A DNA stretch of 64,000 nucleotides from Escherichia phage Ecwhy_1: the sequence record MH791411.1, one strand, 5' to 3'. The stretch's first letter is position 1. Each line of letters opens with the position of its first letter. A program made the position numbers and the translations under genes. Shown in pieces: positions 3,223-22,166 of this stretch. A model generated the notes under the pieces. That model saw only the letters and a list, made by a program, of their open reading frames with translations. It made no database searches and was not told the DNA's origin.

Positions 3223-3227
3223 TACTT

Positions 3228-6064: not shown

Positions 6065-6159
6065 GGTATACATCCTATTAGTTGAGTTAGTACTACAAGT
6101 TAGAGTCTATTATAAAGTACTATCTGGGCAATGTCAAATAGTACTTTAAATGGATTCTA

Positions 6160-6483: not shown

Positions 6484-6570
6484 TTTTATTTCTCTCTCTT
6501 TGTTAGGAGGGGAACCATTCCCCTCGCTTGATGTAAACTATTATACAGTACTAAGATACTTTGTCAATAC

Positions 6571-6753: not shown

Positions 6754-6841
6754 TTTTATTTCTCTCTCTTTGTTAGGAGGGGAACCGTTTCCCCTCACTT
6801 GATGTAAACTATTATACAGTACTAAGATACTTTGTCAATAC

Positions 6842-7117
6842 TTAAGTATTGTAAATGTCGTGAATAGTGATAAAGTTTTTACGACCGTAAACATGTAAAT
6901 CAGTATCAATGTAGTGCTTATCAAGTACATCCTCGACGCTTAAAGACGTGTCGTGAATATCTTCATAAAATTGTGGATCAACAATCGTGCTTAAGTCATC
7001 TGGCGTTAACTTATCGTTAAGGCATTGAACCGCCTGGATATCTGCTTCACGTTTCCATTGTTCCAGATTAGTAGTCAGTACTTGCTCGATTTCGTTAGCT
7101 GTAAGTAAAGTCCGCAT
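6842..7117 (-). CDS. hypothetical protein (91 aa)
   Basis: ORF; SD AAGGAAAC; tandem promoters with long conserved leader upstream. Confidence 0.6.
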   Translation of the reverse strand: MRTLLTANEIEQVLTTNLEQWKREADIQAVQCLNDKLTPDDLSTIVDPQFYEDIHDTSLSVEDVLDKHYIDTDLHVYGRKNFITIHDIYNT

Positions 7118-7185
7118 TTTAATGTTTCCTTATCAGTGGTTGATGTAAGTATTATACTCGTTTACTTTCTATTGTCAAACTATTT

Positions 7186-7262
7186 TATCAGGGGAGTTTT
7201 TCGTATGTCTTACTCCTGGACTACTTAACGGGGTTACTTATTTCGTTCCCCGTCCTGATGTA
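7186..7262 (-). promoter_or_regulatory. conserved ~75-nt structured leader, copy 1
   Basis: Near-identical to 18400-18478, related to 14990-15060. Confidence 0.5.
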
Positions 7263-7432
7263 AAACATTATACTTGATTCTAAGTACAATGCAAGTACTT
7301 TTTTAAAAATAGTTTTCAGTACTAGCCACCAGCAAACAATAGATACATTTATGCACCCTGTGGGCTAATTTGTTTCTATGCGTATATAATAGCAAAGGGA
7401 CTGACCGGAGTCAATCCCTTTTTCAAATATTT

Positions 7433-7582
7433 TTAAACTTCTTTCGGGTTGCGATATGTGATAGCGTTCGGGTACATTTGTTTAATGTTATTCCATGCCT
7501 GGTTAACATTATAACCACTTGATCGAATCAGTTGGTTATTACCGACACCTTGAAACACTACTTCAAATAAGAATTCTTTCAT
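7433..7582 (-). CDS. hypothetical small protein (49 aa, not in ORF track)
   Basis: ATG overlaps stop of upstream gene (ATGA); SD GAGG. Confidence 0.35.
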   Translation of the reverse strand: MKEFLFEVVFQGVGNNQLIRSSGYNVNQAWNNIKQMYPNAITYRNPKEV

Positions 7583-7752
7583 GCTTTCACCTCTCGATCT
7601 GCTTTGCCTTTACGCCAGGCCGTTGCTAATTGTTCGCGTTGCCATAAGTCGAGTGATACGTAAAGTTTTGCATTATCACCCTTCGGATATTCGCCAGTAG
7701 TACCAATCCGATAAAACAGATCTTTCAGTACTGTTAATTCTACCTGGACCAT
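7579..7752 (-). CDS. hypothetical small protein (57 aa)
   Basis: Trimmed to MVQVEL start; promoter+hairpin upstream. Confidence 0.5.
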   Translation of the reverse strand: MVQVELTVLKDLFYRIGTTGEYPKGDNAKLYVSLDLWQREQLATAWRKGKADREVKA

Positions 7753-7839
7753 TATACTTTCCTCTTTGTTAGGAGGGGAACTATTCCCCTTCCGATATAA
7801 AACATTATACACTTTATTCAGTACTGTGCAAGTACTTTT

Positions 7840-8052
7840 TTAATCTTTCAGCCAATGATCCTGAATGAATTTTTCACCGGAACCTTGCTGCATTGATTGT
7901 AACAGACGTTCGCGATGAGCGGCGGCGAATTGCTCAGTACTATGCGTTACACCTGGTTGATATCTGGATTCACCATTTGGGGCGATGTATTGTACATCCC
8001 ACGGTTTTTCGTTAGTATCAGACCATTTACGAACGATTAGTTGACCTTGCAT
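7840..8052 (-). CDS. hypothetical protein (70 aa)
   Basis: ORF; SD AAGAGGAAAG; promoter + hairpin GGGGAGAATCATTTCTCCCC. Confidence 0.6.
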   Translation of the reverse strand: MQGQLIVRKWSDTNEKPWDVQYIAPNGESRYQPGVTHSTEQFAAAHRERLLQSMQQGSGEKFIQDHWLKD

Positions 8053-8135
8053 TTTTCTTTCCTCTTAGTGGGGAGAATCATTTCTCCCCTTCATGTAAAC
8101 TATTATACAGTACTGGATTGCATTGTCAATAGTTT

Positions 8136-8459
8136 TTATTCACCTTGTTTGAATATAGTTTTCTCCATTGATTCCATGATTGCAACCAATACAGCATGGA
8201 TCTCACTTAACGCGGCATCACTAAAAGCATTAATGAATAGGCAATCATTCTCGCGAATATTTTTAATGTACTTATCAGCAGTGGTTGCGAATTCATTCAA
8301 CGGCAGATCAAATGCTTTATCCCATAATGGATGGCGTAACTGTAACAGTACTGGATTATCACGATCACCAGGGGAAAACGTACCAGTGATGAAACATACG
8401 CCCGGAATACTTTCGAACTGGCAACGGACTTCCTTTGTGATAGTAGTATGAATGTACAT
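8136..8459 (-). CDS. hypothetical protein (107 aa)
   Basis: ORF; SD AGAGGATAAC. Confidence 0.55.
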   Translation of the reverse strand: MYIHTTITKEVRCQFESIPGVCFITGTFSPGDRDNPVLLQLRHPLWDKAFDLPLNEFATTADKYIKNIRENDCLFINAFSDAALSEIHAVLVAIMESMEKTIFKQGE

Positions 8460-8486
8460 TTATTGTTATCCTCTATTAAATTAATA

Positions 8487-8675
8487 TTACAGTTTATGAA
8501 TTAATTCTTTATCTAAGCGATAGCGTACATTATTAATGGTAACAGCATTATTTTTAATGCTACGCTGTACGGGTCCACCAGCAATAACAAACGTTGCTTT
8601 ATTGCCCCGAACAATGATAGCACTTCCAGGATTACCGAAATCATCTTGTACTAAAATACTTGATAAGTTTTCCAT
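8487..8675 (-). CDS. hypothetical small protein (62 aa)
   Basis: ORF; SD AAGAGGAAAT; promoter+hairpin upstream. Confidence 0.55.
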   Translation of the reverse strand: MENLSSILVQDDFGNPGSAIIVRGNKATFVIAGGPVQRSIKNNAVTINNVRYRLDKELIHKL

Positions 8676-8753
8676 TTTTATTTCCTCTTAGTAGGGGAAG
8701 ATGTTTCCCCTTGATGCAAGTACTATAACAGTACTGAAAACTAAATGCAAGTA

Positions 8754-9110
8754 CTATGATAAAATCATGATAGGATATTCACTATCTATCAATACCTCGA
8801 ATCCGAAACCTTCGTACCATTCTTTAAGATTAAAGGCGTTATCTTCTCCCGTATCGCATTCTAAGATGATACAATCTGAATCATCGGCGGCATCAATAAA
8901 GGCATTCATTAATTCGTTACCTTCACCATTGCCCCGACTATCAGGATCAACATAAAGAGAATCAATAAACGCTACACGGTCATAATCAAGATCCGGTGCA
9001 ATGATTCCACGTTTAACAAACCAGTACTGCAATTGTGCTACTTTGCCCTGTACTTGATAGCCAGTGATCTCGCCATTGTCAGTAGTACGCGTGATATGTT
9101 GTATTCCCAT
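8754..9110 (-). CDS. GNAT-like acetyltransferase (118 aa), tentative
   Basis: Motifs RGNGEGN (R-x-x-G-x-G) and NAFNLKEWYEGFGF resemble GNAT motifs A/B; SD GAGGATAG. Confidence 0.45.
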   Translation of the reverse strand: MGIQHITRTTDNGEITGYQVQGKVAQLQYWFVKRGIIAPDLDYDRVAFIDSLYVDPDSRGNGEGNELMNAFIDAADDSDCIILECDTGEDNAFNLKEWYEGFGFEVLIDSEYPIMILS

Positions 9111-9173
9111 GATTACTATCCTCAGTTAAGATATAAAACATTATACACTATCTTTCAGTACTGTCAATACTTT

Positions 9174-9431
9174 TTATCTCATAGATCTATGCCAACAATT
9201 ACGCGGATCTCTTTTAAAAGTACTATCATGATCCTCCTGGCAAGTAATACAATACATGCACCCTATAACGGCCTGGCGTCGATTCTCAGGGATTTTATCG
9301 CCGCAGTCGAGGCAATGTACAAGTGATTCTCTTTGTGCGTTAATTTGCTTTCTAGCGTGGTTAACGGCGGCCTGAATCACTGCATGAATCTCGTCTTGTT
9401 CGGCCCCGTCTTTCGCGTATCCTACTGCCAT
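9174..9431 (-). CDS. TraR/DksA-like C4 zinc-finger protein (85 aa)
   Basis: C-x2-C...C-x2-C with CGDKIPENRR; SD GAGG. Confidence 0.55.
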   Translation of the reverse strand: MAVGYAKDGAEQDEIHAVIQAAVNHARKQINAQRESLVHCLDCGDKIPENRRQAVIGCMYCITCQEDHDSTFKRDPRNCWHRSMR

Positions 9432-9589
9432 TATTTTAACCTCATTATAAAAATACTATAGTACTGTAATGCTACAATAATACTACTAGTGTTTATCTTA
9501 TTCAAACCATATGATACTACATATCCACCAGCATTACCACGAATAGTAACGCCTTTGTACTGTCTATATAAATTCAACTGCGTATATTG

Positions 9590-9668
9590 CCTTTGATCAA
9601 GAATTGATCAGAATTATACGCCTTATGCTAAATTGATCCAGTACTTTTTTGATCATTTATTGATCGAT
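9590..9668. repeat. cluster of five TTGATC motifs (GATC sites)
   Basis: TTGATCAAGAATTGATCAGAA..AATTGATCC..TTTTTTGATCATTTATTGATCG. Confidence 0.5.
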
Positions 9669-9760
9669 ATTATATAGTTACATTTGTGCACCCTATGGGT
9701 TAGTGACGTTCTCGTCTTGATGTAAGTATTATGCCAGTACTGGAGGATATTGTCAATAGA

Positions 9761-9964
9761 TTATTTTAATTTTTTTCTGTCATTGATTAATGCTTTCAGT
9801 ACTATACTAATAACTTGCAATGATTCATCAATGACAATGAAATTATTCTCTTTCATTAGATGATAGTTACCATTGATTGTATATTCTAACGAGTACTGTT
9901 TACGTTTAATTTTTGATAATGTTTCTATTTGTTTTTGTACTGATTTCATGCTAATCATTGTCAA
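9761..9964 (-). CDS. hypothetical small protein (67 aa)
   Basis: ORF; weak SD AGGA. Confidence 0.45.
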   Translation of the reverse strand: MTMISMKSVQKQIETLSKIKRKQYSLEYTINGNYHLMKENNFIVIDESLQVISIVLKALINDRKKLK

Positions 9965-10064
9965 ACGTCCTGTAACGCATTCTAACGAGATAAACGGTTT
10001 AGTACTGGCATTGTATAGGGTAAATGATTAAAGCCCACCAGCGTTAACCAGTGGGCTATAATAT

Positions 10065-10208
10065 TACATCTTGCGGATAATCTTAACAGTATCTTTCACC
10101 GATTTACCGTTTTGCTGACATTGCTCGATCATCGCGTATTGTTCTGCGGTCAGATCCTCGCCAGTTTTTGCCAGTACTGCGTCGATGAATGAATCCAGTG
10201 CGATCATT
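10065..10208 (-). CDS. hypothetical small protein (~47 aa, not in track)
   Basis: TTGACA-N17-TATAAT, SD AAGAGAGAAAT, ATG; coordinates approximate. Confidence 0.35.
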
Positions 10209-10297
10209 TTATTTCTCTCTTAGGTTAAGTTAACTACTGTTTATAAAACTTATTATACAGTACTATCAATCTATGTCAATAGTACTGGTAATATATT

Positions 10298-10477
10298 TTA
10301 GCGGTAGTCGTCGTATGCTTTATTCACCTGGCGAATATAACTTTCAAAGGCTTCGTCTACCGTTTCATACTCCCGAACATAATCACCATATGAAACTACA
10401 TACATACCTTTTTGATCTTCAAACGTCATGATGATAGAATCCAGACCAACGATTTCAGTTTTTGCGATGATAGCCAT
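10298..10477 (-). CDS. hypothetical small protein (59 aa, not in track)
   Basis: TTGACA-N17-CATAAT, SD AAGGAA, ATG. Confidence 0.4.
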   Translation of the reverse strand: MAIIAKTEIVGLDSIIMTFEDQKGMYVVSYGDYVREYETVDEAFESYIRQVNKAYDDYR

Positions 10478-10560
10478 TTTTTAATTCCTTAGTAGTGTAG
10501 TTGATAAAAGTTATTATGTCAGTACTATCAAACTATGTCAATAGTACTGTGATAATATTT

Positions 10561-10773
10561 TTAGTTAATGATAGTCAGTGTAAAATTGTAATCACCGCAG
10601 CGATATAGCACGTTATTCCCAAATGTCCCAACTAATCGCACATCACACAAAACGCCGGTTTTTTCTTTTACTTCCTTGATACTTGTAACTCCTGTAATAT
10701 CTTTATTAAAGTATTCATGATCTGAAAATAAAACTTGTTTTGCATTTTTTAATTTCGACCGGATATTAGCCAT
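10561..10773 (-). CDS. hypothetical protein (70 aa)
   Basis: ORF; SD AGAGAGAAAAC; promoter + hairpin GGGGAGAAAAACTTCTCCCC. Confidence 0.55.
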   Translation of the reverse strand: MANIRSKLKNAKQVLFSDHEYFNKDITGVTSIKEVKEKTGVLCDVRLVGTFGNNVLYRCGDYNFTLTIIN

Positions 10774-10869
10774 TTTGTTTTCTCTCTCTGTTAGTGGGGA
10801 GAAGTTTTTCTCCCCTTGATGTAAACTATTATACAGTACTATAATCTATTGTCAAACTATTTTTTTATA

Positions 10870-11211
10870 TTATTCGAAATCTTCTGGACCGGACTGATAA
10901 TCATCTTCACCGTATGCACTTTCTAACCGCTCGCCAGTGTGATCATCAGTTAGTGAGTCATCCTCATAGTTCACGTCTACGCCAGTGATGTAAAACTGGC
11001 TATCGTCTGGATCATTGAAATTAATTTTCTGTATGTTTACAATAACTGTATTGATGCCCAGGACACCGCCATCAGCCGTTACAAAGTACTGATAGTTTTC
11101 GCAACCGCCTGAATTGAAACCGTAATTAATTTCGGCCCGACCATCATTTAAACGCAGTGCCTGGGCGATGATTTCGTTTTCAAAGTTAGATTGAGCAATT
11201 GAGATAGTCAT
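10870..11211 (-). CDS. hypothetical protein (113 aa)
   Basis: Trimmed to MTISIA start; promoter+hairpin upstream. Confidence 0.6.
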   Translation of the reverse strand: MTISIAQSNFENEIIAQALRLNDGRAEINYGFNSGGCENYQYFVTADGGVLGINTVIVNIQKINFNDPDDSQFYITGVDVNYEDDSLTDDHTGERLESAYGEDDYQSGPEDFE

Positions 11212-11663
11212 GATTTGTTTCCTTATTACCAGGGGAAACCGTTTCCCCCTCTCGATGTAAAACATTATACGCTTATTGAGATAGTTTGCAAGTACTTTCT
11301 ACAAATACTTTTAAAATAGTTTTCAGTACTCAATACTCATATAATAGATACACTTATGCACCCTGTGGGCTAGTGAGCTATCTCTCAATGAATATATAAT
11401 AGCAAAATGGCTGACCGGAGTCAACCACTTTTTTCATTTATTTTTAGCTTTTAGAATCGCCGCCTTTCGCGTCATGCCTTGCTTGATGTATTCTTGTACT
11501 TTCGCTTTACGTGCATTCGCTTTATTTGCTTTCGTAAATGCCGAACAACTTTTATAGTTTAAACCTGTTGGATTCATTTAAATCACCATAAAGAATAGAT
11601 AGGTTACTAACAACGCCGCGATCAATGCACCGACCAGGGCCGAACTATAGTAAGCTAATGTTT

Positions 11664-11816
11664 TCATTTTTTAGCCTGAAAGTAATGTTTAATTTGAGCG
11701 GCGGTCAGTGCACAATTACGCAGGAAGTTTTCTGTATAACTGCGGCGAGTACTGAAAGAGAATTGACCTTTGCCGTTACCGATAGTAACATCAAACCGAG
11801 CGTTGTATTGTTTCAT
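11664..11816 (-). CDS. hypothetical small protein (50 aa)
   Basis: Trimmed to MKQYNARF start; SD AGGAGAATC; promoter+hairpin. Confidence 0.45.
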   Translation of the reverse strand: MKQYNARFDVTIGNGKGQFSFSTRRSYTENFLRNCALTAAQIKHYFQAKK

Positions 11817-11897
11817 TTTGATTCTCCTGTTATTGGGGAGAATCATTTCTCCCCTTCATGTAAAACATTATACAGTACTAAAAACTAATTGCAAGTA

Positions 11898-12044
11898 CTA
11901 TTTTTTAGATTTACGCAAACTTTCTACCATCTCAGGAGTAAGGCCCGGCGGGTAGGAAACTACTTCATCAACGAAACGTAAAGGGAATACCCCAGCGAAA
12001 GGTGAACGTGCTTTCTTAGTATTACTCTTTTTTGATGCTTTCAT
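11898..12044 (-). CDS. hypothetical small basic protein (48 aa, not in track)
   Basis: SD AAGGAATATG; promoter+hairpin upstream. Confidence 0.4.
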   Translation of the reverse strand: MKASKKSNTKKARSPFAGVFPLRFVDEVVSYPPGLTPEMVESLRKSKK

Positions 12045-12113
12045 TTCATATTCCTTAATTAGTGGGGAGAATCATTTCTCCCCTTCATGTAAAACATTAT
12101 ACGCGTTTAAAAA

Positions 12114-12323
12114 CTAATTGCAAGTACTATTTGAAAGTAAATGCTCATACGCTGCATTAACTACGTTTTCAATAACCGACTGTACAGAAAGATCCCCCAC
12201 GTCCTGGCTATAGTAGAAATCGCTTACAGTGGTGTCATCGTATGCAAATACTTTACCAGGTACTGCATCAATCACATACATATTAACCTTTAAGATGTCG
12301 ATCTTATCCTGTACAGTAAGCAT
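12114..12323 (-). CDS. hypothetical protein (69 aa)
   Basis: ORF; SD AAAGG. Confidence 0.5.
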   Translation of the reverse strand: MLTVQDKIDILKVNMYVIDAVPGKVFAYDDTTVSDFYYSQDVGDLSVQSVIENVVNAAYEHLLSNSTCN

Positions 12324-12328
12324 ATTAA

Positions 12329-12601
12329 TTAACCTTTTAAGTACTGGCTTAAGTAGTCTTGTTGATCTTCGGTGATTGCAGCCATCTTCCCTAGTACTGG
12401 ATTAATGATATAATCCCCTGTAACGTCCTGTAACGCATTCTCAGGCGGTTTAACGGCTGGGGTAGCCATAGCCATCGCCTGGACTTGTTCGACGCTATAA
12501 CGCTCATATAGGCGGCATTCTTCCGGTGTTAACATAGCATCAATGCGTTTCATTGGTTTAATGATGCTTTCAACTTCATTCAGTACTTGATTAACGTTCA
12601 T
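12329..12601 (-). CDS. hypothetical protein (90 aa)
   Basis: ORF; weak SD. Confidence 0.55.
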   Translation of the reverse strand: MNVNQVLNEVESIIKPMKRIDAMLTPEECRLYERYSVEQVQAMAMATPAVKPPENALQDVTGDYIINPVLGKMAAITEDQQDYLSQYLKG

Positions 12602-12652
12602 GGTATAATCCCCAATATAAGCGGCCTGAATCGACCGCTAACGATGTTTTGA

Positions 12653-12922
12653 TTAATAGGTGTATGGTTGACGTTCAAACAATGATTGCACGTTGTACGC
12701 CCCACTAATGGGCTTTGCTGGTAAATCAATTTTATATTGCTCACGCTTAAAGATAATAAAACGGCAATTGTTTTTAACATCAAAATTGATTGAACGTTCC
12801 AGTAGTTTACCATCGTGCACAAATACAAGATAACCGCTCGCTACTTGTTTTGTAGTACTGGTTGCAACCATAGACCGCCGAACATGTGTACCTGCGTCGA
12901 TTAAAGTACTGATATTTTTCAT
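12653..12922 (-). CDS. hypothetical protein (89 aa)
   Basis: ORF; SD AAGAGGAACG; preferred over overlapping 12598-12828. Confidence 0.55.
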   Translation of the reverse strand: MKNISTLIDAGTHVRRSMVATSTTKQVASGYLVFVHDGKLLERSINFDVKNNCRFIIFKREQYKIDLPAKPISGAYNVQSLFERQPYTY

Positions 12923-13002
12923 TATACGTTCCTCTTAAGTTAATTTAATTTCTTTCCCCTATGCAGACACTATATCAAAGTATCTGCATAAAGTAAAGCT
13001 AA

Positions 13003-13326
13003 TTAAAGATCTTTTTTGCGTTTAACATTCTGTACAGTACAATGCAACGGGATATTAAGATCATTGCACAAACGAGTAAGGGAGGTTTCATCAGTATTAA
13101 GCCCGTCTACTGATTCCTTTAATAGATCTAACGCCGTTTGTTGATATGCATCTTCATAGCCATAAGTAAATGATTCAACCGCCAGATCATTCAAACCGTT
13201 ATCCAGTTCGACGCTTACATGACAAGAATGATAAGTATTGCCATATGAATCAGTCCAACGTTTACCGTCAACATTGATTGCACGGATTGCAGCCAGGGAA
13301 ACGGTGTTAATGATAGTTTTAGCCAT
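13003..13326 (-). CDS. hypothetical protein (107 aa), paralog of 6160-6483
   Basis: ORF; SD AAGGAATAC; TTGACA-N17-CATAAT upstream. Confidence 0.6.
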   Translation of the reverse strand: MAKTIINTVSLAAIRAINVDGKRWTDSYGNTYHSCHVSVELDNGLNDLAVESFTYGYEDAYQQTALDLLKESVDGLNTDETSLTRLCNDLNIPLHCTVQNVKRKKDL

Positions 13327-13415
13327 TTTTGTATTCCTTAAATTAATATGTTGTCTTGATAAAATCTATTATGCCAGTACTATCAAACTATGTCAATAGT
13401 ACTGTGATAATATTT

Positions 13416-13628
13416 TTACTTACTTTCTTTCGCTGCTTTGTGCGTTGCCACTGCCATAACCACATCAGCACGAACAAAGTTTTTAACCGTGTCGCTGTAA
13501 TAATTGATCGCTTCATCAATATCTGCGAACATCCGATACATACCGCACCACGATACTTTATAACCTGCTTTCACTTCTTCCAGCTTAACCAGTGATTTGT
13601 TAACTTTGATTTTAGTAATGATAGCCAT
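13416..13628 (-). CDS. hypothetical protein (70 aa)
   Basis: ORF; SD GAGGAAAAT; promoter duplicated from 13003 gene. Confidence 0.55.
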   Translation of the reverse strand: MAIITKIKVNKSLVKLEEVKAGYKVSWCGMYRMFADIDEAINYYSDTVKNFVRADVVMAVATHKAAKESK

Positions 13629-13707
13629 TTTATTTTCCTCAGTTGTCTTGATAAAATCTATTATGCCAGTACTATCAAACTATGTCAATAGCACTGTGAT
13701 AATATTT

Positions 13708-13851
13708 TTACTTACTTTTTGCTTTCTTGATTGCTTCCACCTGGTCGGCCCATTCTTTACCCCATACTTGTAAATTATAATGGTACTGGCAAAGAGCAAC
13801 GCCCCGCTTTAAACCCGTAATAGATTTCTGACCACATTGACAAGTTTTCAT
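13708..13851 (-). CDS. hypothetical small Cys-containing protein (47 aa, not in track)
   Basis: SD AAGGAAAC; promoter + hairpin upstream. Confidence 0.4.
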   Translation of the reverse strand: MKTCQCGQKSITGLKRGVALCQYHYNLQVWGKEWADQVEAIKKAKSK

Positions 13852-13937
13852 TTTAGTTTCCTTGTAGTGGGGAGAACCATTTTCTCCCCTTGATGTAATG
13901 TATTATACTTTATTCGATTTACTTTGCAAGTACTTTT

Positions 13938-14165
13938 TTAATTTAATTCATCAAGGCAAAGGATACGCTCAACGCCCAAATCAGTTAAACTAATCGACGG
14001 CACTTGATAGGTTTCAATGTATGCTACACTTGCCCACTGACCGAACTCATTAACGGCCCAGGTATTCATTGCATTTTGCAATTCCGCACCTTCCTTGTTG
14101 GTAATGACTGCAACTACTTGTTCGTTGCCAGTAGTACCAGATACGCGAGTAATGATAATAGCCAT
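13938..14165 (-). CDS. hypothetical protein (75 aa)
   Basis: Trimmed to MAIIIT start; promoter+hairpin. Confidence 0.55.
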   Translation of the reverse strand: MAIIITRVSGTTGNEQVVAVITNKEGAELQNAMNTWAVNEFGQWASVAYIETYQVPSISLTDLGVERILCLDELN

Positions 14166-14401
14166 TGTTTTGATTCCTTTGATTTGGAAGGAGAACCGTT
14201 TCCCCCTCTCGATGTAAAACATTATACGCTAATCTCTTAATCGTGCAAGTACTTTTTATTACTTTTTGCAAAATACTTTAAACGCTCTCAATCGCGTTCT
14301 TACAGCCTTAACGCCACCAGCTAGGGCAATGCATCAGATAATCAGTTTAATGCGTTAGAATCGTTTCTAGGCGGTGCTGGTGGCATGGTAAACGATAAAC
14401 A

Positions 14402-14430
14402 CAAAAAAGCCCACCGTTTAAGGTGGGCTA
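14402..14430 (-). terminator. intrinsic terminator
   Basis: Hairpin AGCCCACC-TTAAAC-GGTGGGCT + TTTTTTGT on - strand. Confidence 0.65.
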
Positions 14431-14450
14431 GTGATTCAGTACTTTAATTG

Positions 14451-14933
14451 TTATGCTTCAACTTTGCGATGAGATTCGATCCATTCCTCGCGAGTCATAC
14501 CGCTGGCGTTAATCGCGTCCAGTACTACCGCAATGCAGTTACCACGCACCGGAATCAGATATTCTTCCCCGTTGTCCAGTACTACCGCTACGCGTTCCTG
14601 AATCCATTTTTTGGCTTTTACTTCTGGCTTGTCTTCCCCATACTTAACCGCCAGGGCTTTTTGTGCCATCTCTGTAACTACTTCCAGATCCAATCCAACT
14701 ACTGCCGCCTGAATACTTTCGATTGTTGCTTGTAGTTCTGCTTCACGGGCCGCCTTTGCCGCTTCAATTTCTGCCGCTTTATTTGCTTGTAGTTCTTTCG
14801 CAGTACTGTACGCGATGTTAAAATTATTGCGTACCGCTTTCATGGTATCGTTATCCAGTTCAGCCAGGATCTCAGCCGCGACGTTAGTTTCATTTGCTAC
14901 CAGTGCTTTGATGAATGATTTTACATTAGCCAT
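14451..14933 (-). CDS. hypothetical Ala/Glu-rich protein (160 aa)
   Basis: Trimmed to MANVKS start; SD GAGGA; long structured leader; terminator downstream. Confidence 0.6.
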   Translation of the reverse strand: MANVKSFIKALVANETNVAAEILAELDNDTMKAVRNNFNIAYSTAKELQANKAAEIEAAKAAREAELQATIESIQAAVVGLDLEVVTEMAQKALAVKYGEDKPEVKAKKWIQERVAVVLDNGEEYLIPVRGNCIAVVLDAINASGMTREEWIESHRKVEA

Positions 14934-14989
14934 TTTATAAATCCTCAATTAAAGTTTAGTTTACGTTTATTAGTGTATCAAAGTTTTCT

Positions 14990-15060
14990 CGACGTGTCCA
15001 GTTTTTCGTTCGACTTACTGGCGGTCTACTTAGTGCTCCCCGTCTTGATGTAATACATTC
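14990..15060 (-). promoter_or_regulatory. conserved structured leader, copy 2 (diverged)
   Basis: Shares ACATCAAGACGGGGA..AAGTA..CGAAAAACT with copies 1 and 3. Confidence 0.4.
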
Positions 15061-15130
15061 TACGCTTTTCTGCGGTAATGTCAACTACTTTCTTAAAACT
15101 ATTTTCAAAGTATCTCAGTACTACGATACT

Positions 15131-15160
15131 ACAAAAACAAAAAAGCCCACCAGGTGGGCT
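15131..15160 (-). terminator. intrinsic terminator
   Basis: Hairpin AGCCCACCTGGTGGGCT + T-run on - strand. Confidence 0.6.
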
Positions 15161-15166
15161 ATGTAC

Positions 15167-15397
15167 TTAATCAGTGAGTAAAATATTAAACACTTTACCA
15201 TTTAACGTTATTGGTGCACTGCTACCAGGCACAAGATCCGTTAGTATACCTGCAATCGCTTTATCATTGGCTACCTTTCCAGTGTCCAACAGTACTACAG
15301 TACTGATAAGATTAACGCTCGTTTCAATATCATAATGCACGGCGTTAAGTAGTTGTGTAGTACTGCTTTCGTTAAGTAAAACAATTCGCTTAGTCAT
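15167..15397 (-). CDS. hypothetical protein (76 aa)
   Basis: ORF; terminator downstream. Confidence 0.5.
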   Translation of the reverse strand: MTKRIVLLNESSTTQLLNAVHYDIETSVNLISTVVLLDTGKVANDKAIAGILTDLVPGSSAPITLNGKVFNILLTD

Positions 15398-15418
15398 GAT
15401 GTTACCCCGTAGTATCTA

Positions 15419-15718
15419 TCAACGGCAATTAATAACGCCGGTATGAGTTACTTTCTCGGTATCCATTACAGTGACCGAACCGCGTTTAGCACTGGCATCA
15501 TAATAAATTGTCGTGCTACCGTTTTCGTCTTCTTCATGGAACGGGCCGTTTTTAAATGCTTCCGGCTGGATCTCTAAATCCTTTAATACAATCTCGCCAG
15601 TTCTTTCATCGGTCATTGCAACAGTGCACTGAATGAATTTTTCACTACTTACATCTAATGACGCATTAACAGCGAAAGAGGAAACAGATAAAGCCAGGGC
15701 GATGATTGCAATTTTCAT
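15419..15718 (-). CDS. secreted protein (99 aa), predicted signal peptide
   Basis: N-terminus MKIAIIALALSVSSFAVNA; SD AAGGATAATC; promoter+hairpin. Confidence 0.6.
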   Translation of the reverse strand: MKIAIIALALSVSSFAVNASLDVSSEKFIQCTVAMTDERTGEIVLKDLEIQPEAFKNGPFHEEDENGSTTIYYDASAKRGSVTVMDTEKVTHTGVINCR

Positions 15719-15802
15719 TTGATTATCCTTAGTTACCAGGGGAAACCGTTTCCCCTTGCGATGTAAAATATTATACAGTACTAAAAACTAATTGCAAGTA
15801 CT

Positions 15803-16039
15803 TTATGATTTTTTATAAAACATTTCAGCAGTGATATTTTTACCCGTTGGCTGTACTTTATCCAGAATTTTTTGATGCCCTGGTCGTCCAAAGGAATATG
15901 ATCCGTAAACAGTAAACCAGTAGTTACCCTCAGTGTTTACATGTACAGCACAATAAGGAACACCACGCGATTCATCACTAGTAAAGTGTGATACCGTTCC
16001 CGTTACATTCGCAGACGTTGATTTGATTTGTTCGACCAT
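15803..16039 (-). CDS. hypothetical protein (78 aa)
   Basis: ORF; SD AAGGAATAAG; promoter+hairpin. Confidence 0.55.
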   Translation of the reverse strand: MVEQIKSTSANVTGTVSHFTSDESRGVPYCAVHVNTEGNYWFTVYGSYSFGRPGHQKILDKVQPTGKNITAEMFYKKS

Positions 16040-16148
16040 TTTCTTATTCCTTAGTTACCAGGGGAACCGCTCCCCCTATGCAAAACATTATACGCGTTTA
16101 AAAACTAATTGCAAGTATTTTAATAAAAAGTATTTGAAAAATAGTTGT

Positions 16149-16290
16149 TGACAAGTGCATCCAGTACTGGCATAATTACTACATCAAGACGAAACAGTCA
16201 CTAACCCACCGGGTGCCGAGATCCGTCTATTAAATGATTCAGTACTGAAAAAGTAACGGGGAGTTATTATCTCCCCGTGTTGTTATTTTG
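16149..16290 (+). ncRNA. candidate small RNA: + strand promoter plus about 100 nt ending at a bidirectional hairpin
   Basis: TTGACA (16149)-N17-CATAAT; leader ACATCAAGACGAAACAGTCACTAACCCACCGGGTGC; hairpin GGGGAG..CTCCCC at 16256-16278 + T-rich; no ORF. Confidence 0.35.
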
Positions 16291-16504
16291 TAAGGTATAA
16301 ACAGAAGTCGCCTTTATTTGCTACGCCGCCAGTGTAACGCGAGGAATAGTTAGAAACGTCCTGGACTTCTGCTATTACCAGGGTATCATCATTCAATTCG
16401 TCGCAGAAGCAAACGGCTGGATCTTGTACGCCGATTTTGTCGGCATGTTCCCGCATAGATTTAACCAGTGCTTCCAGTTGGGAAAGAGTAGTGATATTAG
16501 CCAT
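16283..16504 (-). CDS. hypothetical protein (73 aa)
   Basis: Trimmed to MANITT start; promoter+hairpin. Confidence 0.55.
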   Translation of the reverse strand: MANITTLSQLEALVKSMREHADKIGVQDPAVCFCDELNDDTLVIAEVQDVSNYSSRYTGGVANKGDFCLYLTK

Positions 16505-16588
16505 TTTATTTTCCTCATTACCAGGGAGAACCATTTCTCCCTTTGATGTAAACCATTATACAGTACTGAAAACTAATTGCAAGTACTT

Positions 16589-16777
16589 TTAATTAAATTC
16601 CATAAAATCATTTTCAACGTGCACAACAATCTGATTATTTTTAAAGGACGCAGAAAACTCTATACAATCATAAACCGCTTTTTCTGTTACCAGACTATGA
16701 GCACCAATCGGATTAATTGGGGATTGAATTGTTTCAATCTCGTTACCTTGTTCATTAACGATTAAAATATTAAACAT
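16589..16777 (-). CDS. hypothetical small protein (62 aa)
   Basis: ORF; SD CAGGAGTAAC. Confidence 0.5.
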   Translation of the reverse strand: MFNILIVNEQGNEIETIQSPINPIGAHSLVTEKAVYDCIEFSASFKNNQIVVHVENDFMEFN

Positions 16778-16816
16778 TGCCGTTACTCCTGGATAGTGTT
16801 AACTCGATATAAAGTA

Positions 16817-16999
16817 TTATACGCCTTTATTGCTTAGTGTCCAGTGATCACGCATCATACGCCCCGCACGATCCCAGCTAGTAGGCATGGGTATGCCTTG
16901 CAATTCGTTAGGGGAGATCTCGACCTCGATCCCTACATCAATAACAGTCATTCCAGCTTTCGCAGCTTGCTCGCGGATAACCTCAGATAATGTTGTCAT
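16817..16999 (-). CDS. hypothetical small protein (60 aa)
   Basis: ORF; SD CAGGAGC; leader duplicated with 16589 gene. Confidence 0.5.
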   Translation of the reverse strand: MTTLSEVIREQAAKAGMTVIDVGIEVEISPNELQGIPMPTSWDRAGRMMRDHWTLSNKGV

Positions 17000-17073
17000 G
17001 ATTAAAGCTCCTGGATAGTGTTAACTCGATATAAAGTATTATACAGTACTGAAAACTAATTGCAAGTACTTTT

Positions 17074-17334
17074 TTAATATTGTTTGTCGTCGTCTTCCTC
17101 GATGAATTGACCGACGAAATGATCTACTTTCGCTTTGAGGCTTTTATAATCTTCTTCTACTTCCGTTAAACGTTCCTGGTAGTATTCCAATGCTTCAAGA
17201 TACGCCGCCTCAGCAGTTTTTGCACGCATAGCTAAATTCATTCCACGCGTTTCATCAAATAGCCAATAACCATCGGTGCACTGGCTAATAGATAATGACT
17301 TGCTTAGTACTGTATAGCTAATTACTTTACTCAT
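17074..17334 (-). CDS. hypothetical protein (86 aa)
   Basis: ORF; SD GAGGGTTATC. Confidence 0.55.
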   Translation of the reverse strand: MSKVISYTVLSKSLSISQCTDGYWLFDETRGMNLAMRAKTAEAAYLEALEYYQERLTEVEEDYKSLKAKVDHFVGQFIEEDDDKQY

Positions 17335-17391
17335 TAGATAACCCTCAGTAAAGGCGGGAACTATTACCCGCCATTATCTCAGTACTGAATA

Positions 17392-17631
17392 TTACATTCC
17401 AACCATTGCAGCACGGATCGCAGTAGTGCTATACTTAAAGCCGTCCGGCGTTGTAGTAGTACCGTTGGCTTTTAATCTGCGGTACATACATTCCGCAGCA
17501 ATATCTTTAGTTCTACTTTGTGCGATGCAACTTTGAGCAAGCCGATACAATGACTCACCGTTATTAATCCAAAGGCTTACATTCCAATGAGTTTTGTTTT
17601 TGTGTCCGTTGTAAGTTTTAGTACTAGCCAT
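17392..17631 (-). CDS. hypothetical protein (79 aa), paralog of 19432-19671
   Basis: Trimmed to MASTKT start; shared motif GHKNKTHWNVSLWINN..PDGFKYSTTAIRAAMVGM. Confidence 0.6.
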   Translation of the reverse strand: MASTKTYNGHKNKTHWNVSLWINNGESLYRLAQSCIAQSRTKDIAAECMYRRLKANGTTTTPDGFKYSTTAIRAAMVGM

Positions 17632-17721
17632 TTTTAAATCCTCGTTTGAGCGGGGAACCACTCCCCGCCTCGATATAAAGTATTATACGCTTTTAAACTT
17701 AGTTTGCAAGTACTTTTTAAA

Positions 17722-18333
17722 TTAATATTCGATTGATTCCACTACGCCATCAATAACATTGAATTGATACTCGTTACCCTCAATCAGTGCCGTAATGTTT
17801 TCAGTAGTGAATTGATCCTCATATGCATTCTCTAAATCACGGTACAACTTGCGGGACAATTCACGAATAGTTTCAGTGAGTAGTTCCTCAAGCTCATTAA
17901 CTAACGTTTCTTGTTTTGCGGTTAAATCAGTGTAAGCCGATTCAATGTACCCGCTTACAGTATTCTCATGCGAGTAGTGGGAGTGCGAACGTTTTACACT
18001 CATCGCCAAATCATCTTCATTCAGCAAGTGACGGATTGAGCGATACTTAGTTAATGCTCTTACCTTGCGTAAAAACTTCACTGCGTCAACGTGGTCAGTA
18101 CTGATTGATGCACCGTCACCCTGGGACCAAAAACCACTGAATTGTATTTCAGCGTCATTAATGCCATATTCCGGTAGTACTGTTTCTTTATAGTATTCAA
18201 TTTCACTTTCAGAAAAATAATTGTCGTTTGAGTTTTTTTCACGTTCCCGAACCAGTTCGATAGCTGACGTTTGTTGTTCTGCGTTCAATTCAGAAAAAGC
18301 CATAACATAAGTAGTAGTAGTGATAGTTTTCAT
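17722..18333 (-). CDS. hypothetical acidic protein (203 aa)
   Basis: ORF; SD GAGGGTTAC; tandem promoters with long leader. Confidence 0.65.
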   Translation of the reverse strand: MKTITTTTYVMAFSELNAEQQTSAIELVREREKNSNDNYFSESEIEYYKETVLPEYGINDAEIQFSGFWSQGDGASISTDHVDAVKFLRKVRALTKYRSIRHLLNEDDLAMSVKRSHSHYSHENTVSGYIESAYTDLTAKQETLVNELEELLTETIRELSRKLYRDLENAYEDQFTTENITALIEGNEYQFNVIDGVVESIEY

Positions 18334-18399
18334 TTTGTAACCCTCATTCAGTAGTTGATGTAAGTATTATACGCTTTTAAAAACATTTGTCAAACTATT

Positions 18400-18478
18400 T
18401 TATCAGGGGAGTTTTTCGTGTGCCTTACTCCTGGGCTACTTAACGGGAAGTTACTTATTTCGTTCCCCGTCCTGATGT
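18400..18478 (-). promoter_or_regulatory. conserved structured leader, copy 3
   Basis: Near-identical to 7186-7262. Confidence 0.5.
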
Positions 18479-18557
18479 AAAACATTATACGCCTTTAAAC
18501 ATAGTTTGCAAGTACTTTTTAAAAATAGTTTTCAGTACTGAATAGTAAAAAAAAGTA

Positions 18558-18650
18558 TTGACAGCATTATCAAGTACTGGTATAATATACCCCATGACAA
18601 CAGCTAACCCACCGGGTGCACAATTGTAACTATACTAAACTAATTTTTCT
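18558..18650 (+). ncRNA. candidate small/antisense RNA from a + strand promoter
   Basis: TTGACA-N17-TATAAT then AACCCACCGGGTGCAC; convergent with a - strand promoter at about 18700-18735. Confidence 0.3.
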
Positions 18651-18760
18651 ATAGATACACTCCCGCACCCTATGGGCTACGGCTTATCTGCCAATGAATA
18701 CATTATGCCAGTACTGACAAAATAAGTCAATACCGGCAATTGTAAAGATTTGTAAACTGC

Positions 18761-18997
18761 TTATACTGCAATCGCGTCCAGGCTATAATAATAATAAGTG
18801 CCGTATTGGTGTACTTTATTACCTTTTATTTCAGTACTGAATGAATCCGAACGGTTTGCATATGATGTTAATTTAAAGTACTTTGATTTGCTGATACGTT
18901 GCCATACACCACAGATCCGCTGTAAGTAAGTAGTTTTATTCGTGGTAGTATCTTTTACGGTTTTAACTTCAGTCATATACATATTAGTCATTTTCAT
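18761..18997 (-). CDS. hypothetical protein (78 aa)
   Basis: ORF; SD GGAG (start may be the third codon ATG); promoter + hairpin. Confidence 0.5.
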   Translation of the reverse strand: MKMTNMYMTEVKTVKDTTTNKTTYLQRICGVWQRISKSKYFKLTSYANRSDSFSTEIKGNKVHQYGTYYYYSLDAIAV

Positions 18998-19078
18998 TAC
19001 TCCAGGTTATAGGCGGGAAGAGTTCCCGCTCTCGATGTAAAACATTATACGCCATTAAACATAGTTTGCAAGTACTTT

Positions 19079-19345
19079 TTATTCAAGTACTGCAATCTTT
19101 TTAGTACGGTACACGGTCACGCGGTTGCCCTTTCGGTCGAGCTTTATTTCTACCACTCGACGCGATACACTATCGGGACTTTTTAAGGCCGCTAACCAGT
19201 ACTGTAATGATCTGGCGGTACTACGCTTTACAATGGCCCAACGTTTACCACGTTCCGATTGTACGCCCATATCTTTAAACGTTGCCCCGTCCTGGCGTGC
19301 GGCGATCCGAGCTTGTTCACGCGTCGCAAAATACTTAATTTTCAT
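19079..19345 (-). CDS. hypothetical protein (88 aa), paralog of 5669-6064
   Basis: Trimmed to MKIKYF start; SD AAGGGCAAC. Confidence 0.6.
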   Translation of the reverse strand: MKIKYFATREQARIAARQDGATFKDMGVQSERGKRWAIVKRSTARSLQYWLAALKSPDSVSRRVVEIKLDRKGNRVTVYRTKKIAVLE

Positions 19346-19431
19346 GCTGTTGCCCTTATCGTTGGTGTATGAATAAAACACTATTATAAAGTACTATCGC
19401 AAAAAAATGATAGTACTTTAAATAAATTCTA

Positions 19432-19671
19432 TTACATTCCAACCATCGCCGCACGGATCGCAGTAGTGCTATATTTGAATCCGTCCGGTGTTTTATCTTG
19501 TCCAGTCTGTTCTAAAAATAACATCATATGACGGGCCGCATCATTGCGATTAGTGCTATCGTTAATAAAGTCCTGGGCCAACCGATACAATCCCTCATCG
19601 TTATTAATCCAAAGGCTTACATTCCAATGAGTTTTGTTTTTGTGACCTAAGAACATTTTTGATTTAGCCAT
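19432..19671 (-). CDS. hypothetical protein (79 aa), paralog of 17392-17631
   Basis: Trimmed to MAKSKMF start; promoter+hairpin. Confidence 0.6.
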   Translation of the reverse strand: MAKSKMFLGHKNKTHWNVSLWINNDEGLYRLAQDFINDSTNRNDAARHMMLFLEQTGQDKTPDGFKYSTTAIRAAMVGM

Positions 19672-19764
19672 TTTTTTAATCCTCTTATATAGTGGGGAAC
19701 TATTCCCCACCTGATGTAAAACATTATACGCCATTAAACATAGTTTGCAAGTACTTTATTAAAC

Positions 19765-20127
19765 TTATTTGTAAATTTTGCCACTGTCAGCCCATACCAG
19801 GAAACGAGGCATATTATCCCATGCATCTTGTTTTAAGTTTAAGCCGTGCAATTCCTCAGTTGTTGCCATCCCTGGTACTGGCTTACTACACACCGCGAAA
19901 TTTTCGCCCATATACTGATAAACCATCGTCAAATCATTTGAGATCATTATATGGATCATTGAATCCAGCATCAAAGTAGCGGCGTATTGTTCACGCTTAA
20001 GCGGCAACATTGCAATAAGTTCCCGATAAGCTGCAATGTGAATTTTTACAGTTTCAGCCGGAAGACCTTTCATCTCATCGCGGAAGTTTACCAGGTTAAG
20101 CATGATTTTATTGATTTGAGTCGCCAT
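19765..20127 (-). CDS. hypothetical protein (120 aa)
   Basis: Trimmed to MATQINK start; promoter+hairpin. Confidence 0.6.
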   Translation of the reverse strand: MATQINKIMLNLVNFRDEMKGLPAETVKIHIAAYRELIAMLPLKREQYAATLMLDSMIHIMISNDLTMVYQYMGENFAVCSKPVPGMATTEELHGLNLKQDAWDNMPRFLVWADSGKIYK

Positions 20128-20242
20128 CGTTTTAATCTCTCTTAATGTGTAGCGGGAAGTGTTCCCGCTCTCGATGTAAAACATTATACGCTTTTATCAG
20201 TACGGTGCAAGTACTTTCTACAAATACTTTTAAAATAGTTTT

Positions 20243-20329
20243 CTTTCTATATAGGAGTACTATTATTCAGTACTGCAATCATCCAGGGGAACTATCTTTC
20301 TATATAGGAGTACTATTATTCAGTACTGA
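20243..20329. repeat. 34-bp direct repeat, two copies
   Basis: TCTTTCTATATAGGAGTACTATTATTCAGTACTG at about 20243 and 20296. Confidence 0.6.
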
Positions 20330-20490
20330 ATCAATCCACTAAATCATCCCTATACCCCGTAAAACGTCCTCAGACGCATTCTAACGCATTAATACACATA
20401 AGCTATACATTTGCACCATTCCAATCATTCCAGGGCTTTACAGGCCGTTTAAACGCGTTAAATTATTTTCAATTATTTTGTTTTTAGGTA

Positions 20491-20600
20491 TTGACTTGAT
20501 CCTGAAAAAGCGTATAATTACTACATAGACGCGAGAAAGCGGATACCCCAGGGGGTGGGAAGATCCGTCCAAAATTCAAGATATAAAAAAAGGATACACT
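20491..20600 (+). ncRNA. candidate + strand transcript in the non-coding region
   Basis: TTGACT-N16-TATAAT; leader with CCCCAGGGGGTGGG and GATCCGTCC. Confidence 0.3.
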
Positions 20601-20706
20601 CCCGCACCCTAGCAGGTAAACGCACTTTCTCAGTACTGAAATATAGTACCATAGTCCGGCCCAGGATAGCAAGCAAATTAATTAAAACTTTTTTGCTTCC
20701 AGGGTA

Positions 20707-20800
20707 TTGCTTTATTTTTCCAGTACTGTATAATAGTTCCATCAAGTCGAGAAAGACTCAAGCCCACCGGGTGCATAGTTACGCCCAAAATTCAGTACTG
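20707..20800 (+). ncRNA. candidate + strand transcript in the non-coding region
   Basis: TTGCTT..TGTATAAT (extended -10); leader CCATCAAGTCGAGAAAGACTCAAGCCCACCGGGTGC. Confidence 0.3.
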
Positions 20801-20954
20801 AAAAAATTTTTAAAAATATCCGGCCAGGCCGTTGACATTGCCCCCAGTTTATAAGATAATGATTCCAGATTCAGAAAAATCTAACACCAGATACTGCGGG
20901 GAAACTATCCCCACGCGGTAGGGGAACTATTGGAAAAAACAAAATAAAATTTTG

Positions 20955-21145
20955 ATTTAGCCGTCTATACTTCCAGACGTGTAACCATCTAGCCGTTTAG
21001 CCGTCCAAACGTCTAGCCATCCAGCCATCCAGAAATCTAGCCGTTTAGCCGTCTAGATGGATAGCCATCTTTACTTCCAGACTTCTGGAGGGCTAGACAT
21101 ATCTACGCCCAAAATCCATCCAGGGTAACTACGCCCAAAATCCGT
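20955..21145. repeat. iteron-like cluster of short direct and inverted repeats
   Basis: About 10 copies of TAGCCGT/TAGCCAT in about 120 bp; CTACGCCCAAAATCC twice; palindromes CCAGA..TCTGG, GATGG..CCATC. Confidence 0.5.
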
Positions 21146-22166
21146 CAGTACTATACCATAGATCTATCTTTTGAAAGGGAGTATTCAGTACTGCCATCAT
21201 AGCCCTCACTATGTTACCCTAGGAGGATGAAGACCATCATGTAGTACTGAATACTGTTAGAGGGAATCCACCAGCTTGTGCTGGTGGCATAATGCTTTAG
21301 ATTAAAATCAGTACTGACACCATTCTGTTAATATCAGTACTGTTATTACGATTTTCATATGAGGTTCAAAAAGATGTACCACCACAGGAGGAACTATCTT
21401 TTCTGTACTGTCTCACGACAGGAGGTAGAGTAAATGAATTGTTCGCAGCAACTCATCACCCTATGTAGAACATTATACAGTACTGAATCATAAAGTCAAT
21501 AACTTTCTTTCATCTTTCAGTACTGATATTCTTGAGAACTACCCGACTACAAACATCATTATATCCCACAAATCATAAACGTCCCAACGTAAATTTCAAC
21601 TTTCGAAGATCCAACTTTTATTTCATAGGTACTCCAAAATTTTTAGGATCGAGATTTAGGATGGAGTACTAACCAACTTTTTGCTGGAGCCTCAAGGGGT
21701 AATGGAATTTTACCCCGAAGGGTAAAGGGGTAATTGAAATTAAGGTGAAAGTAATAATTCAGTACTAATCATTGCGTGATTACTTTTGATTACATTTGAT
21801 GTAATTTGCAAAATGGAAAAGGAGCTTGGAAACTACAAAGTACGGCAGACTTCCTCTGCCTACTTAGTGGGATATCGCCACCTTCAGTACTGAATACTTT
21901 TAGGGCAGTACTGAATCCTTCCCTAGCATTCTTGAGTAATCTTGTCTATAATAATCAGTACTGAATCATATATAATCATTCTGTGATTCTACGGTGCTCA
22001 TATAAATGTTTATATATGATTACTTATGACTACATATGATTACGGGGTTTAGCCTGGGGAGAATCCTAGTGATCGCATTTGTCCAGGCTGAATTTTAACA
22101 ATTCTTCTAATTGTTAAAGCCTGTCCAATGCTTTCCCTGCGGAGCTTCCCCTGTCTATATGTTGAA

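Follow-up and report, generated by a model that had tools for sequence, protein, structure and literature searches.

Escherichia phage Ecwhy_1 (sequence record MH791411.1) was analysed over a stretch of 64,000 nucleotides, here called the window, with emphasis on positions 16149-20800 and on a repeated module, made up of a promoter and a folded RNA, that is present there and elsewhere in the window. By BLAST, positions 15500-21500 match the Asteriusvirus (Rak2-like) jumbo coliphages, including WPEC3 at 95.6% identity over 100% of the length, as well as EC.P1, A4, CMSTMSU, SP27 and phAPEC6. Overall, the window is 95-100% identical to the Asteriusvirus phages WPEC3, EC.P1 and fEgEco12, and short modules of the window are found at 100% identity in WPEC3 and fEgEco12. 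The direct terminal repeat of fEgEco12 measures 20,993 bp according to PhageTerm, backed by restriction digests (PMC13070987). By colinearity with fEgEco12 in BLAST, the corresponding repeat of Ecwhy_1 would begin shortly ahead of window position 1 and end at about 21864, with one repeat end ~85 bp outside the window start. This repeat is dense in early-type sigma70 promoters, and in the terminal repeat of phage PA5oct many genes are highly transcribed early (PMC7318152). The module has 11 copies in the window, all of them in the terminal repeat.

A module of promoter and transcribed RNA

An earlier note on this DNA had proposed four + strand promoters in the region, each followed by a shared leader and no open reading frame (ORF), as sources of small or antisense RNAs. 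All four are present: a consensus scan gives a 12/12 match with TG at 18558-18586 (TTGACA-17-TATAAT) and 11/12 matches at 16148-16176 (with TG) and 20491-20518, and there is a fourth promoter at 20707-20734 that combines a weak -35 (TTGCTT) with a perfect -10 TATAAT. The shared leader is likewise beyond chance, with five matches to the 19-mer TCACTAACCCACCGGGTGC at up to three mismatches (0.00 expected) and nine to the core CCCAYNGGGTGC (0.44 expected), a number reached in 0 of 100 shuffles. None of the ORFs overlapping the modules matches any PHROG family, and ARAGORN finds no tRNA or tmRNA gene in the window. A covariance model built from 15 copies and searched over the 64 kb with filters off returns exactly 10 significant copies, with E-values from 2.6e-16 to 2.4e-5 and all within 1304-20796; it misses an eleventh, degenerate copy on the - strand at 20585-20672. 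The note was right about - strand modules at 9690-9760 and 18650-18740 but not about their number, as five more were missed (1304-, 4056-, 7331-, 11336- and the degenerate copy; units are referred to by position and strand).

The module is not limited to this phage. BLAST finds it in jumbo phages of Escherichia, Klebsiella (RaK2, K64-1), Salmonella, Cronobacter (GAP32), Pectobacterium (CBB), Yersinia, Serratia and Erwinia, and in the records of several of these relatives it lies inside annotated terminal repeats. The covariance model was applied to a first comparison set consisting of CBB, GAP32, K64-1, fHe-Yen9-03 and Serratia BF, and to a second set of IMG/VR contigs obtained with a degenerate-pattern scan, which hold about 60 and 59 copies, respectively, or ~110 distinct copies. 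Model matches in the IMG/VR set occur solely in Rak2-like jumbo contigs, the remaining pattern matches being without the module. All copies of CBB fall within its annotated repeat (1-22456), CBB and GAP32 carry units at syntenic positions, and wherever the repeat limits are known, copies are seen only in the direct terminal repeat. TTGAC-type promoters without the module are also found at 45-62 kb of the window.

Across the 110 distinct copies, a sigma70 promoter score of at least 9/12 is found in every one, with TTGACA or TTGACT in 89, TG in 69 and a 17-bp spacer in 79. In nine of ten window units the A of CAT is the predicted start, and the conserved RNA measures ~48 nt. Predicted 5' ends in the window are at 16183, 18593, 20525 and 20741 on the + strand and at 1352, 4109, 7379, 9721, 11389, 18695 and about 20640 on the - strand. 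A first hairpin (hp1) starts 1-4 nt past the predicted start, and 7-9 nt past the -10 in 87 of the 110 copies; its stem of 3-5 bp is free to vary, and its loop is purine-rich, typically GCGAAA, GAGAAA (GNGAAA), AGAACAA or AGAUAA. After a linker of 3-4 nt follow a second hairpin (hp2) of the form RCCC-(AYN or UAUA)-GGGU, then GC, six variable nt and the tail GYRYCY. A nearly pure A/T stretch lies 3' of the tail (positions t13-t24, the t positions being those after GGGTGC), and roughly half of the copies have an AGTACT palindrome 15-30 nt past GGGTGC.

Rfam 15 gives no match at gathering score over the 64 kb, and at E-values up to 5 over 16100-21000 it gives chance matches only (E of at least 2), none of them aligned to the module core; hammerhead, pistol and preQ1-like cores were found neither by eye nor in Rfam. 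A host homologue or mimicry was also considered and rejected: two consensus patterns derived from the window have no exact match in 185,579 bacterial and archaeal species, represented by one genome each. No description of the module family was found in the literature searched: the CBB paper lists RpoD-like promoters and does not describe a transcribed motif, and neither the RaK2 paper nor the fEgEco12 paper (PMC13070987) mentions promoters. From these comparisons the module appears to be an undescribed RNA family, found only in Rak2-like jumbo phages. In CBB (our record L001), the annotated minus-strand ORF CBB_7 at 3793-3966 overlaps a convergent pair of modules; CBB_7 is probably not a gene, and ORFs annotated over such sites are probably spurious.

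Conserved fold of the transcript

In hp1, 93.5% of the cells on the model alignment are paired, and double-sided changes occur at all four pairs (GC, UA, AU and CG types). The covariation score of hp1 is 0.353 versus 0.123 in shuffles, where it was reached in 0 of 500, and at most 0.041 with the partner slid. RNAalifold independently gives hp1 and hp2, and ~40 different hp1 stem sequences come with the same loop types. The second hairpin is nearly invariant, with A-U or G-U as closing pair and a CCU/AGG double change in two copies. Its 3' arm can alternatively pair with the pyrimidine-rich tail to form a helix that we call H3; the GGG is common to both folds, which are mutually exclusive. Mean computed stability is -3.9 kcal/mol for hp2 and -2.6 kcal/mol for H3, and H3 is the better fold in 51 of the 110 copies.

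The tail varies in a restricted manner in these 110 copies. Positions t8-t12 are limited to Y, R, Y, C and Y, with no purine at t8 and no pyrimidine at t9 in any copy, and t1, t5 and t7 vary among three or four bases. Pairs 1-5 of H3 with GGGUG are 94-100% paired in register, versus 24-66% in every other register, and the simplest reading of the t8-t12 pattern is the RNA helix H3. Since H3 is mostly made of G-U pairs, which become A·C mismatches on the other strand, this helix is possible only in RNA of the module strand. The compensatory changes in hp1 and the wobble-compatible variation of the tail thus show that selection acts on the RNA of the module strand. The proposal of small RNAs is borne out to the extent that the units are autonomous combinations of a promoter and a noncoding RNA.

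Several other structures and signals were considered and rejected. A long-range helix closing the 5' end to the tail, seen in single-sequence folds, has a register that is inconsistent among copies and competes with the well-supported hp1, and a tail hairpin GCGG-AGAU-CCGU is limited to one subtype. A mini-ORF or Shine-Dalgarno sequence in the tail (GGAG, NUG) would, by eye, require impossible spacing and has unconserved elements. Reading GGGTGC-N11-TAnnnT as a -10-like or middle promoter is at odds with the presence of the last T in only 47% of copies, and t8-t12 are better explained by RNA pairing.

Units, transcript ends and neighbouring repeats

Six units (1304-, 4056-, 7331-, 9666-, 11336- and 18643-) and the degenerate 20609- are co-directional with the genes, and four (16183+, 18597+, 20525+ and 20741+) are opposed to them. 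Unit 16183+ (16148-16228) has the promoter TTGACA-17-CATAAT with TG, a predicted start at 16183, hp1 at 16188-16199, hp2 (ACCC-acc-GGGT) at 16204-16214 and a tail with H3 reaching 16228; unit 9666- (9676-9756), with hp1 GACG-agaa-CGTC, is near-identical to it in type. The 12/12 promoter with TG of unit 18597+ (18558-18631) precedes a degenerate hp1, hp2 at 18607-18617 and a tail to 18631, and the facing unit 18643- (18653-18730) consists of TTGACT-17-CATAAT with TG, hp1 TGGC-agataa-GCCG, hp2 at 18677-18667 and a tail to 18653. Unit 20525+ (20491-20570) has TTGACT-16-TATAAT, hp1 CGC-gagaaa-GCG, a variant hp2 (ACCC-cagg-GGGT) and the tail CCGTCC. In the degenerate 20609- (20585-20672), hp1 GTACT-gagaa-AGTGC and a variant hp2 (ACCT-gcta-GGGT) are followed by H3 (GGGTGC..GTATCC) and then T7, which together resemble an intrinsic terminator. 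Unit 20741+ (20707-20786) carries the weak -35 TTGCTT with TATAAT, hp1 AGTC-gagaaa-GACT, hp2 at 20762-20772 and a tail to 20786.

Among the remaining - strand units, 11336- (11346-11424) has its -35 within a terminator-like hairpin and an early-gene promoter next downstream, 7331- (7341-7414) has a reduced hp1 (TAG..TTA), and 4056- (4066-4144) has hp1 TGAG-agataa-CTCA. Downstream of all three lies CAGTACTG, followed by the ordinary early promoter of the next gene. Unit 1304- (1314-1387) is directed at the repeat end near window position 1, ~1.4 kb away; each repeat end has one such unit firing toward it from within about 1.1-1.4 kb. A hairpin at the -35 is found in 1304-, 4056-, 7331- and 11336- and in many relatives (GGGG..TTGAC..CCCC), and 9666-, 16183+, 18597+, 18643-, 20525+ and 20741+ are without one.

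Downstream of 16183+, the hairpin GGGGAG..CTCCCC at 16256-16278 has a terminator score on either strand. In agreement with the end proposed earlier for the transcript from 16149, it probably terminates the 16183+ RNA at about 100-110 nt from its predicted start, together with the leftward gene 16283-16534. In the window, own terminators belong to 16183+ and 20609-. A U run after H3 is present in a minority of copies, namely 20609- and copies in CBB, GAP32 and metagenomic contigs. Where enough flank was available (107 copies), the first element met downstream is a canonical terminator in 16 and a co-directional promoter in 35, and neither occurs within ~214 nt in 56.

About one third of the copies stand in convergent pairs, of which 17 were counted and which recur across genera. 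The spacing is exactly 68 nt in 11 of the 17 and 70 nt in two with 4-nt hp2 loops, and a second class is spaced by 79-88 nt. The window holds the pairs 18597+/18643- (68 nt) and 20525+/20609- (70 nt). The promoter at 18558 does converge with a - strand promoter, as previously noted, but the arrangement is not an mRNA/antisense pair: the partner is another module copy, and the site is a composite of two modules. A tandem array of the module was not found by TRF over 15500-22000, a region with six of the 11 units. Pairs in relatives often have an AGTACT-centred palindrome in the middle, and the longer-spaced class has a palindrome, AATGATAATCATT, that resembles the E. coli Fur box. This palindrome follows single modules or centres the 79-88-nt pairs in Klebsiella, Yersinia and metagenomic relatives (L003 3359-3371; L035 6094-6106; L041 915-973; L045 2825-2837 and 8083-8095; a close variant in L004 at about 340-360); the window has none.

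AGTACT itself occurs 286 times in the 64 kb, versus ~22 expected from base composition, and CAGTACTG 68 times; examples of AGTACT are at 16166-16173, 16242-16249, 18534-18541 and 20796-20803. Its density is ~25 per 4 kb in the terminal repeat versus ~10 per 4 kb elsewhere, and it is ~2-fold enriched between ORFs, yet common within them. It is located in promoter spacers, beside -35 boxes and 15-30 nt past the RNA modules, and it may be bound by some abundant protein of the phage, or may signal processing or a roadblock.

Chi sites (GCTGGTGG) number 12 on the - strand and three on the + strand of the window, versus ~1 expected per strand, with nine and two, respectively, inside the repeat. Those on the - strand are at 1279, 3081, 4985, 7333, 8582, 9532, 10042, 14321 and 21275, and also at 40811, 51456 and 61989, and those on the + strand at 14376, 21280 and 28313. 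Their orientation suits RecBCD entry from either repeat end. Chi lies just downstream of units 1304-, 7331- (immediately so) and 9666-, and in metagenomic relatives Chi or its complement is found within the spacer of the module promoter.

Other repeated elements lie nearby. A second untranslated repeat of ~85 nt (ACATCAGGACGGGGAAC...ACTCCCCTGATAAAATAG) is present on the - strand at about 7260-7175 and about 18475-18390, flanked by an early promoter and a subsequent TTGACA promoter, with near-identical transcribed parts and differing promoter spacers; it can be drawn as a three-way junction and may be another non-coding RNA family. Downstream of 9666-, at about 9560-9670 on the - strand, at least five GATCAA/TGATCA in ~100 bp surround a promoter-like site that is followed by Chi, and these could be Dam/SeqA sites or iterons. 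A tandem array of ~12 copies of the 8-mer TAGCCGTC at 20958-21056, ~0.8-0.9 kb from the repeat boundary at ~21864, is iteron-like and could be a packaging or replication signal. Two direct copies of ~36 nt (TTTCTTTCTATATAGGAGTACTATTATTCAGTACTG), seen by eye in non-coding DNA at 20236-20330, adjoin the module cluster. Nearly all of the small leftward genes have a cassette of their own, AGTAC-TTGCAA-N16-TATAAT, with a start near ACATCGAG and a 5' stem-loop GGGGAA..TTCCCC ahead of the ribosome-binding site (17 - strand sites, at 15770-19750 and elsewhere). These cassettes resemble the PeSL cassettes of T4-type phages, and BLAST alignments with relatives are interrupted at such intergenic cassettes, near 17030, 17640 and 20290.

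Candidate functions of the module

We are far surer that a transcribed, structured RNA family exists than of how it acts. One and the same folded RNA is retained with or without a downstream gene, the module being co-directional, anti-directional or in convergent pairs independently of gene context, and a common function is therefore to be sought in the short RNA itself or in making it. The reading that we favour, at about even confidence, is that the modules give rise to abundant, very early small RNAs that act through their structure. Host RNA polymerase would transcribe the units in the first minutes of infection, yielding abundant small non-coding RNAs of ~55-60 nt where a U run follows H3 and of ~100-110 nt at 16183+, with the partner unit or an AGTACT site setting the limit of other products. 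The RNA would be stabilised by its 5' hairpin, and the conserved loops and the hp2/H3 domain would act by structure, the most plausible mode being that they bind a protein of the host or phage, either as decoy or as cofactor; we judge antisense pairing less likely.

Several points weigh against this favoured reading. Promoters, start sites and 3' ends are predictions throughout, and the protein-decoy step is a proposal. The support for H3 is one-sided (GGGUG is almost invariant), so that its shuffle control, in which 140 of 500 shuffles reach the percentage paired and 50 of 500 the covariation score, is uninformative. Two mutually exclusive hairpins beside a promoter look cis-acting, as in an attenuator or antiterminator; with a promoter coming first in 35 of the 107 copies and a canonical terminator in just 16, many transcripts could continue as leaders. 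Confinement to the terminal repeat could point to a role at the DNA ends or in replication.

The main rival is a cis-acting leader switch, in which the hp2 and H3 folds choose between stop and read-through as an attenuator or a nut/put-like antitermination site would; short RNAs would be the default and long read-through the regulated product, which from anti-directional copies would be antisense to early genes. We regard it as possible, if on the unlikely side. The module lies immediately past the start site, its two folds are of similar stability, a minority of copies have the U run after H3, and the 35 promoter-first copies reach the next promoter and gene without a canonical terminator between. 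As in attenuators, one arm (GGGU) is common to the two hairpins, which lie a short way past a promoter; unlike attenuators, the module has no evident leader peptide, ligand pocket or regular U tract, and the 'terminator' arm H3 is a weak, G-U-rich 5-bp helix, with most copies lacking a U tract. The nut sites of lambda and the put sites of HK022 are likewise small transcribed hairpin elements directly behind strong early promoters, the purine-rich hp1 loop resembles the GNRA-like boxB loop of lambda nut, and a terminator just downstream, as at 16183+, is also found with lambda nut. However, the order of elements differs from nut, there are 11 copies per repeat versus two per genome, and many copies face away from genes; boxA (YGCUCUUUA) matches the window at chance (24 versus 25.6 expected) and occurs in no unit. 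The HK022 put elements are two long stem-loops of ~70 nt in total, much larger than module stems of 3-5 bp. The convergent pairs and anti-directional copies, finally, would leave such a switch with no gene to control. A further reading, which we consider unlikely, takes the module as a new kind of RNA device tied to the terminal repeat, whose bistable RNAs, made in bulk in the first minutes of infection, would sequester a host factor or else reprogram either RNA polymerase or the DNA ends. A defence or RNA-decay protein is an example of such a factor; the functional unit would be the fixed-spacing convergent pair, and 3' ends would come from a protein on its central palindrome or from polymerase collision.

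Control of the leftward early mRNAs or of host mRNAs by antisense or base-pairing small RNAs, along the lines suggested in the earlier note, is in our view highly improbable. The + strand copies do oppose the gene block, and at the terminator that they share, the 16183+ RNA and the 3' end of the leftward transcript overlap, but most copies (the six and the degenerate 20609-) run with the genes and the converging partner is another module. The conserved segments are paired, the free ones (hp1 stem, t1-t5) are not seed-like in conservation, and a search for targets in the window found complements to the tail and hp2 essentially only on the opposite strands of the units themselves. The Hfq/ProQ-type small RNA picture fits poorly too, since a Rho-independent terminator with a U tail is found in few copies, a canonical one preceding the next promoter in those 16 of 107. 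A type III antitoxin (ToxI-like) does not correspond to copies that are dispersed, each with its own promoter. The untranslated RNAs ncRNA001 and ncRNA002 of PA5oct, a related Pseudomonas jumbo phage, are also in the long terminal repeat and highly transcribed, at 236 and 451 nt (PMC7318152); they were rejected as homologues of the module, having no motif in common with it, and the PA5oct repeat has no covariance-model match (best E = 0.14).

A role at the DNA ends or in replication would have short transcripts from the strong promoters of the repeat form R-loops in the AT-rich stretch, there to prime replication, as reported for T4 origins, or to stimulate recombination between the repeats. 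The confinement of copies to the repeat where its limits are known, the nearly pure A/T stretch after the tail, the enrichment of Chi oriented for RecBCD from both ends and the unit firing toward each end suit this proposal. We nevertheless hold it to be quite unlikely: it leaves the conserved fold and its compensatory changes unexplained, and promoters that converge are wrongly arranged for bidirectional priming. The nearest described thing to the module is the PeSL cassette of T4-type phages, which likewise has a strong sigma70-like promoter, joined to a stem-loop terminator in a DNA layout that some of the module units share, is repeated among small ORFan early genes (PMC2839356, PMC4122927) and marks boundaries of modular shuffling between relatives. 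The module might matter at the DNA level only, as a recombination cassette of promoter and terminator, similar to PeSLs and homogenised by gene conversion, or as a factor-dependent promoter with CCCAYNGGGTGC as an activator box 11 bp upstream of a -10-like TAnnnT. In five units a terminator-like hairpin encloses the -35, as in PeSLs (PMC4122927), and GGGTGC stands exactly 11 nt from a TAnnnT-like hexamer (T12 in 74%, A13 in 80% and T17 in 47% of copies). Conservation is, however, poor at the critical last T of this supposed -10, hp1 stems change sequence yet keep pairing, which neither gene conversion nor protein recognition would lead one to expect, and the wobble-only variation of t8-t12 makes sense just for RNA of one strand. 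PeSLs are, moreover, composites of promoter and terminator DNA without a conserved transcribed RNA, whereas the conserved and covarying part of the module is the transcript (hp1, hp2 and H3); half of the module units have no -35 hairpin, and about a third are in fixed-spacing convergent pairs. A function at the DNA level alone, which the compensatory and wobble patterns contradict, seems to us very hard to credit.

Rak2-like jumbo phages are widely isolated for therapy, and the majority of their genes have no known function. The module adds a new RNA family to them, with ~110 distinct copies and compensatory changes, and an unusual architecture in which a bistable 3' domain is combined with convergent pairs at a fixed spacing of 68 nt. 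As a repeated, strongly promoted and structurally constrained RNA, it represents a testable candidate for a function in early takeover or at the genome ends.

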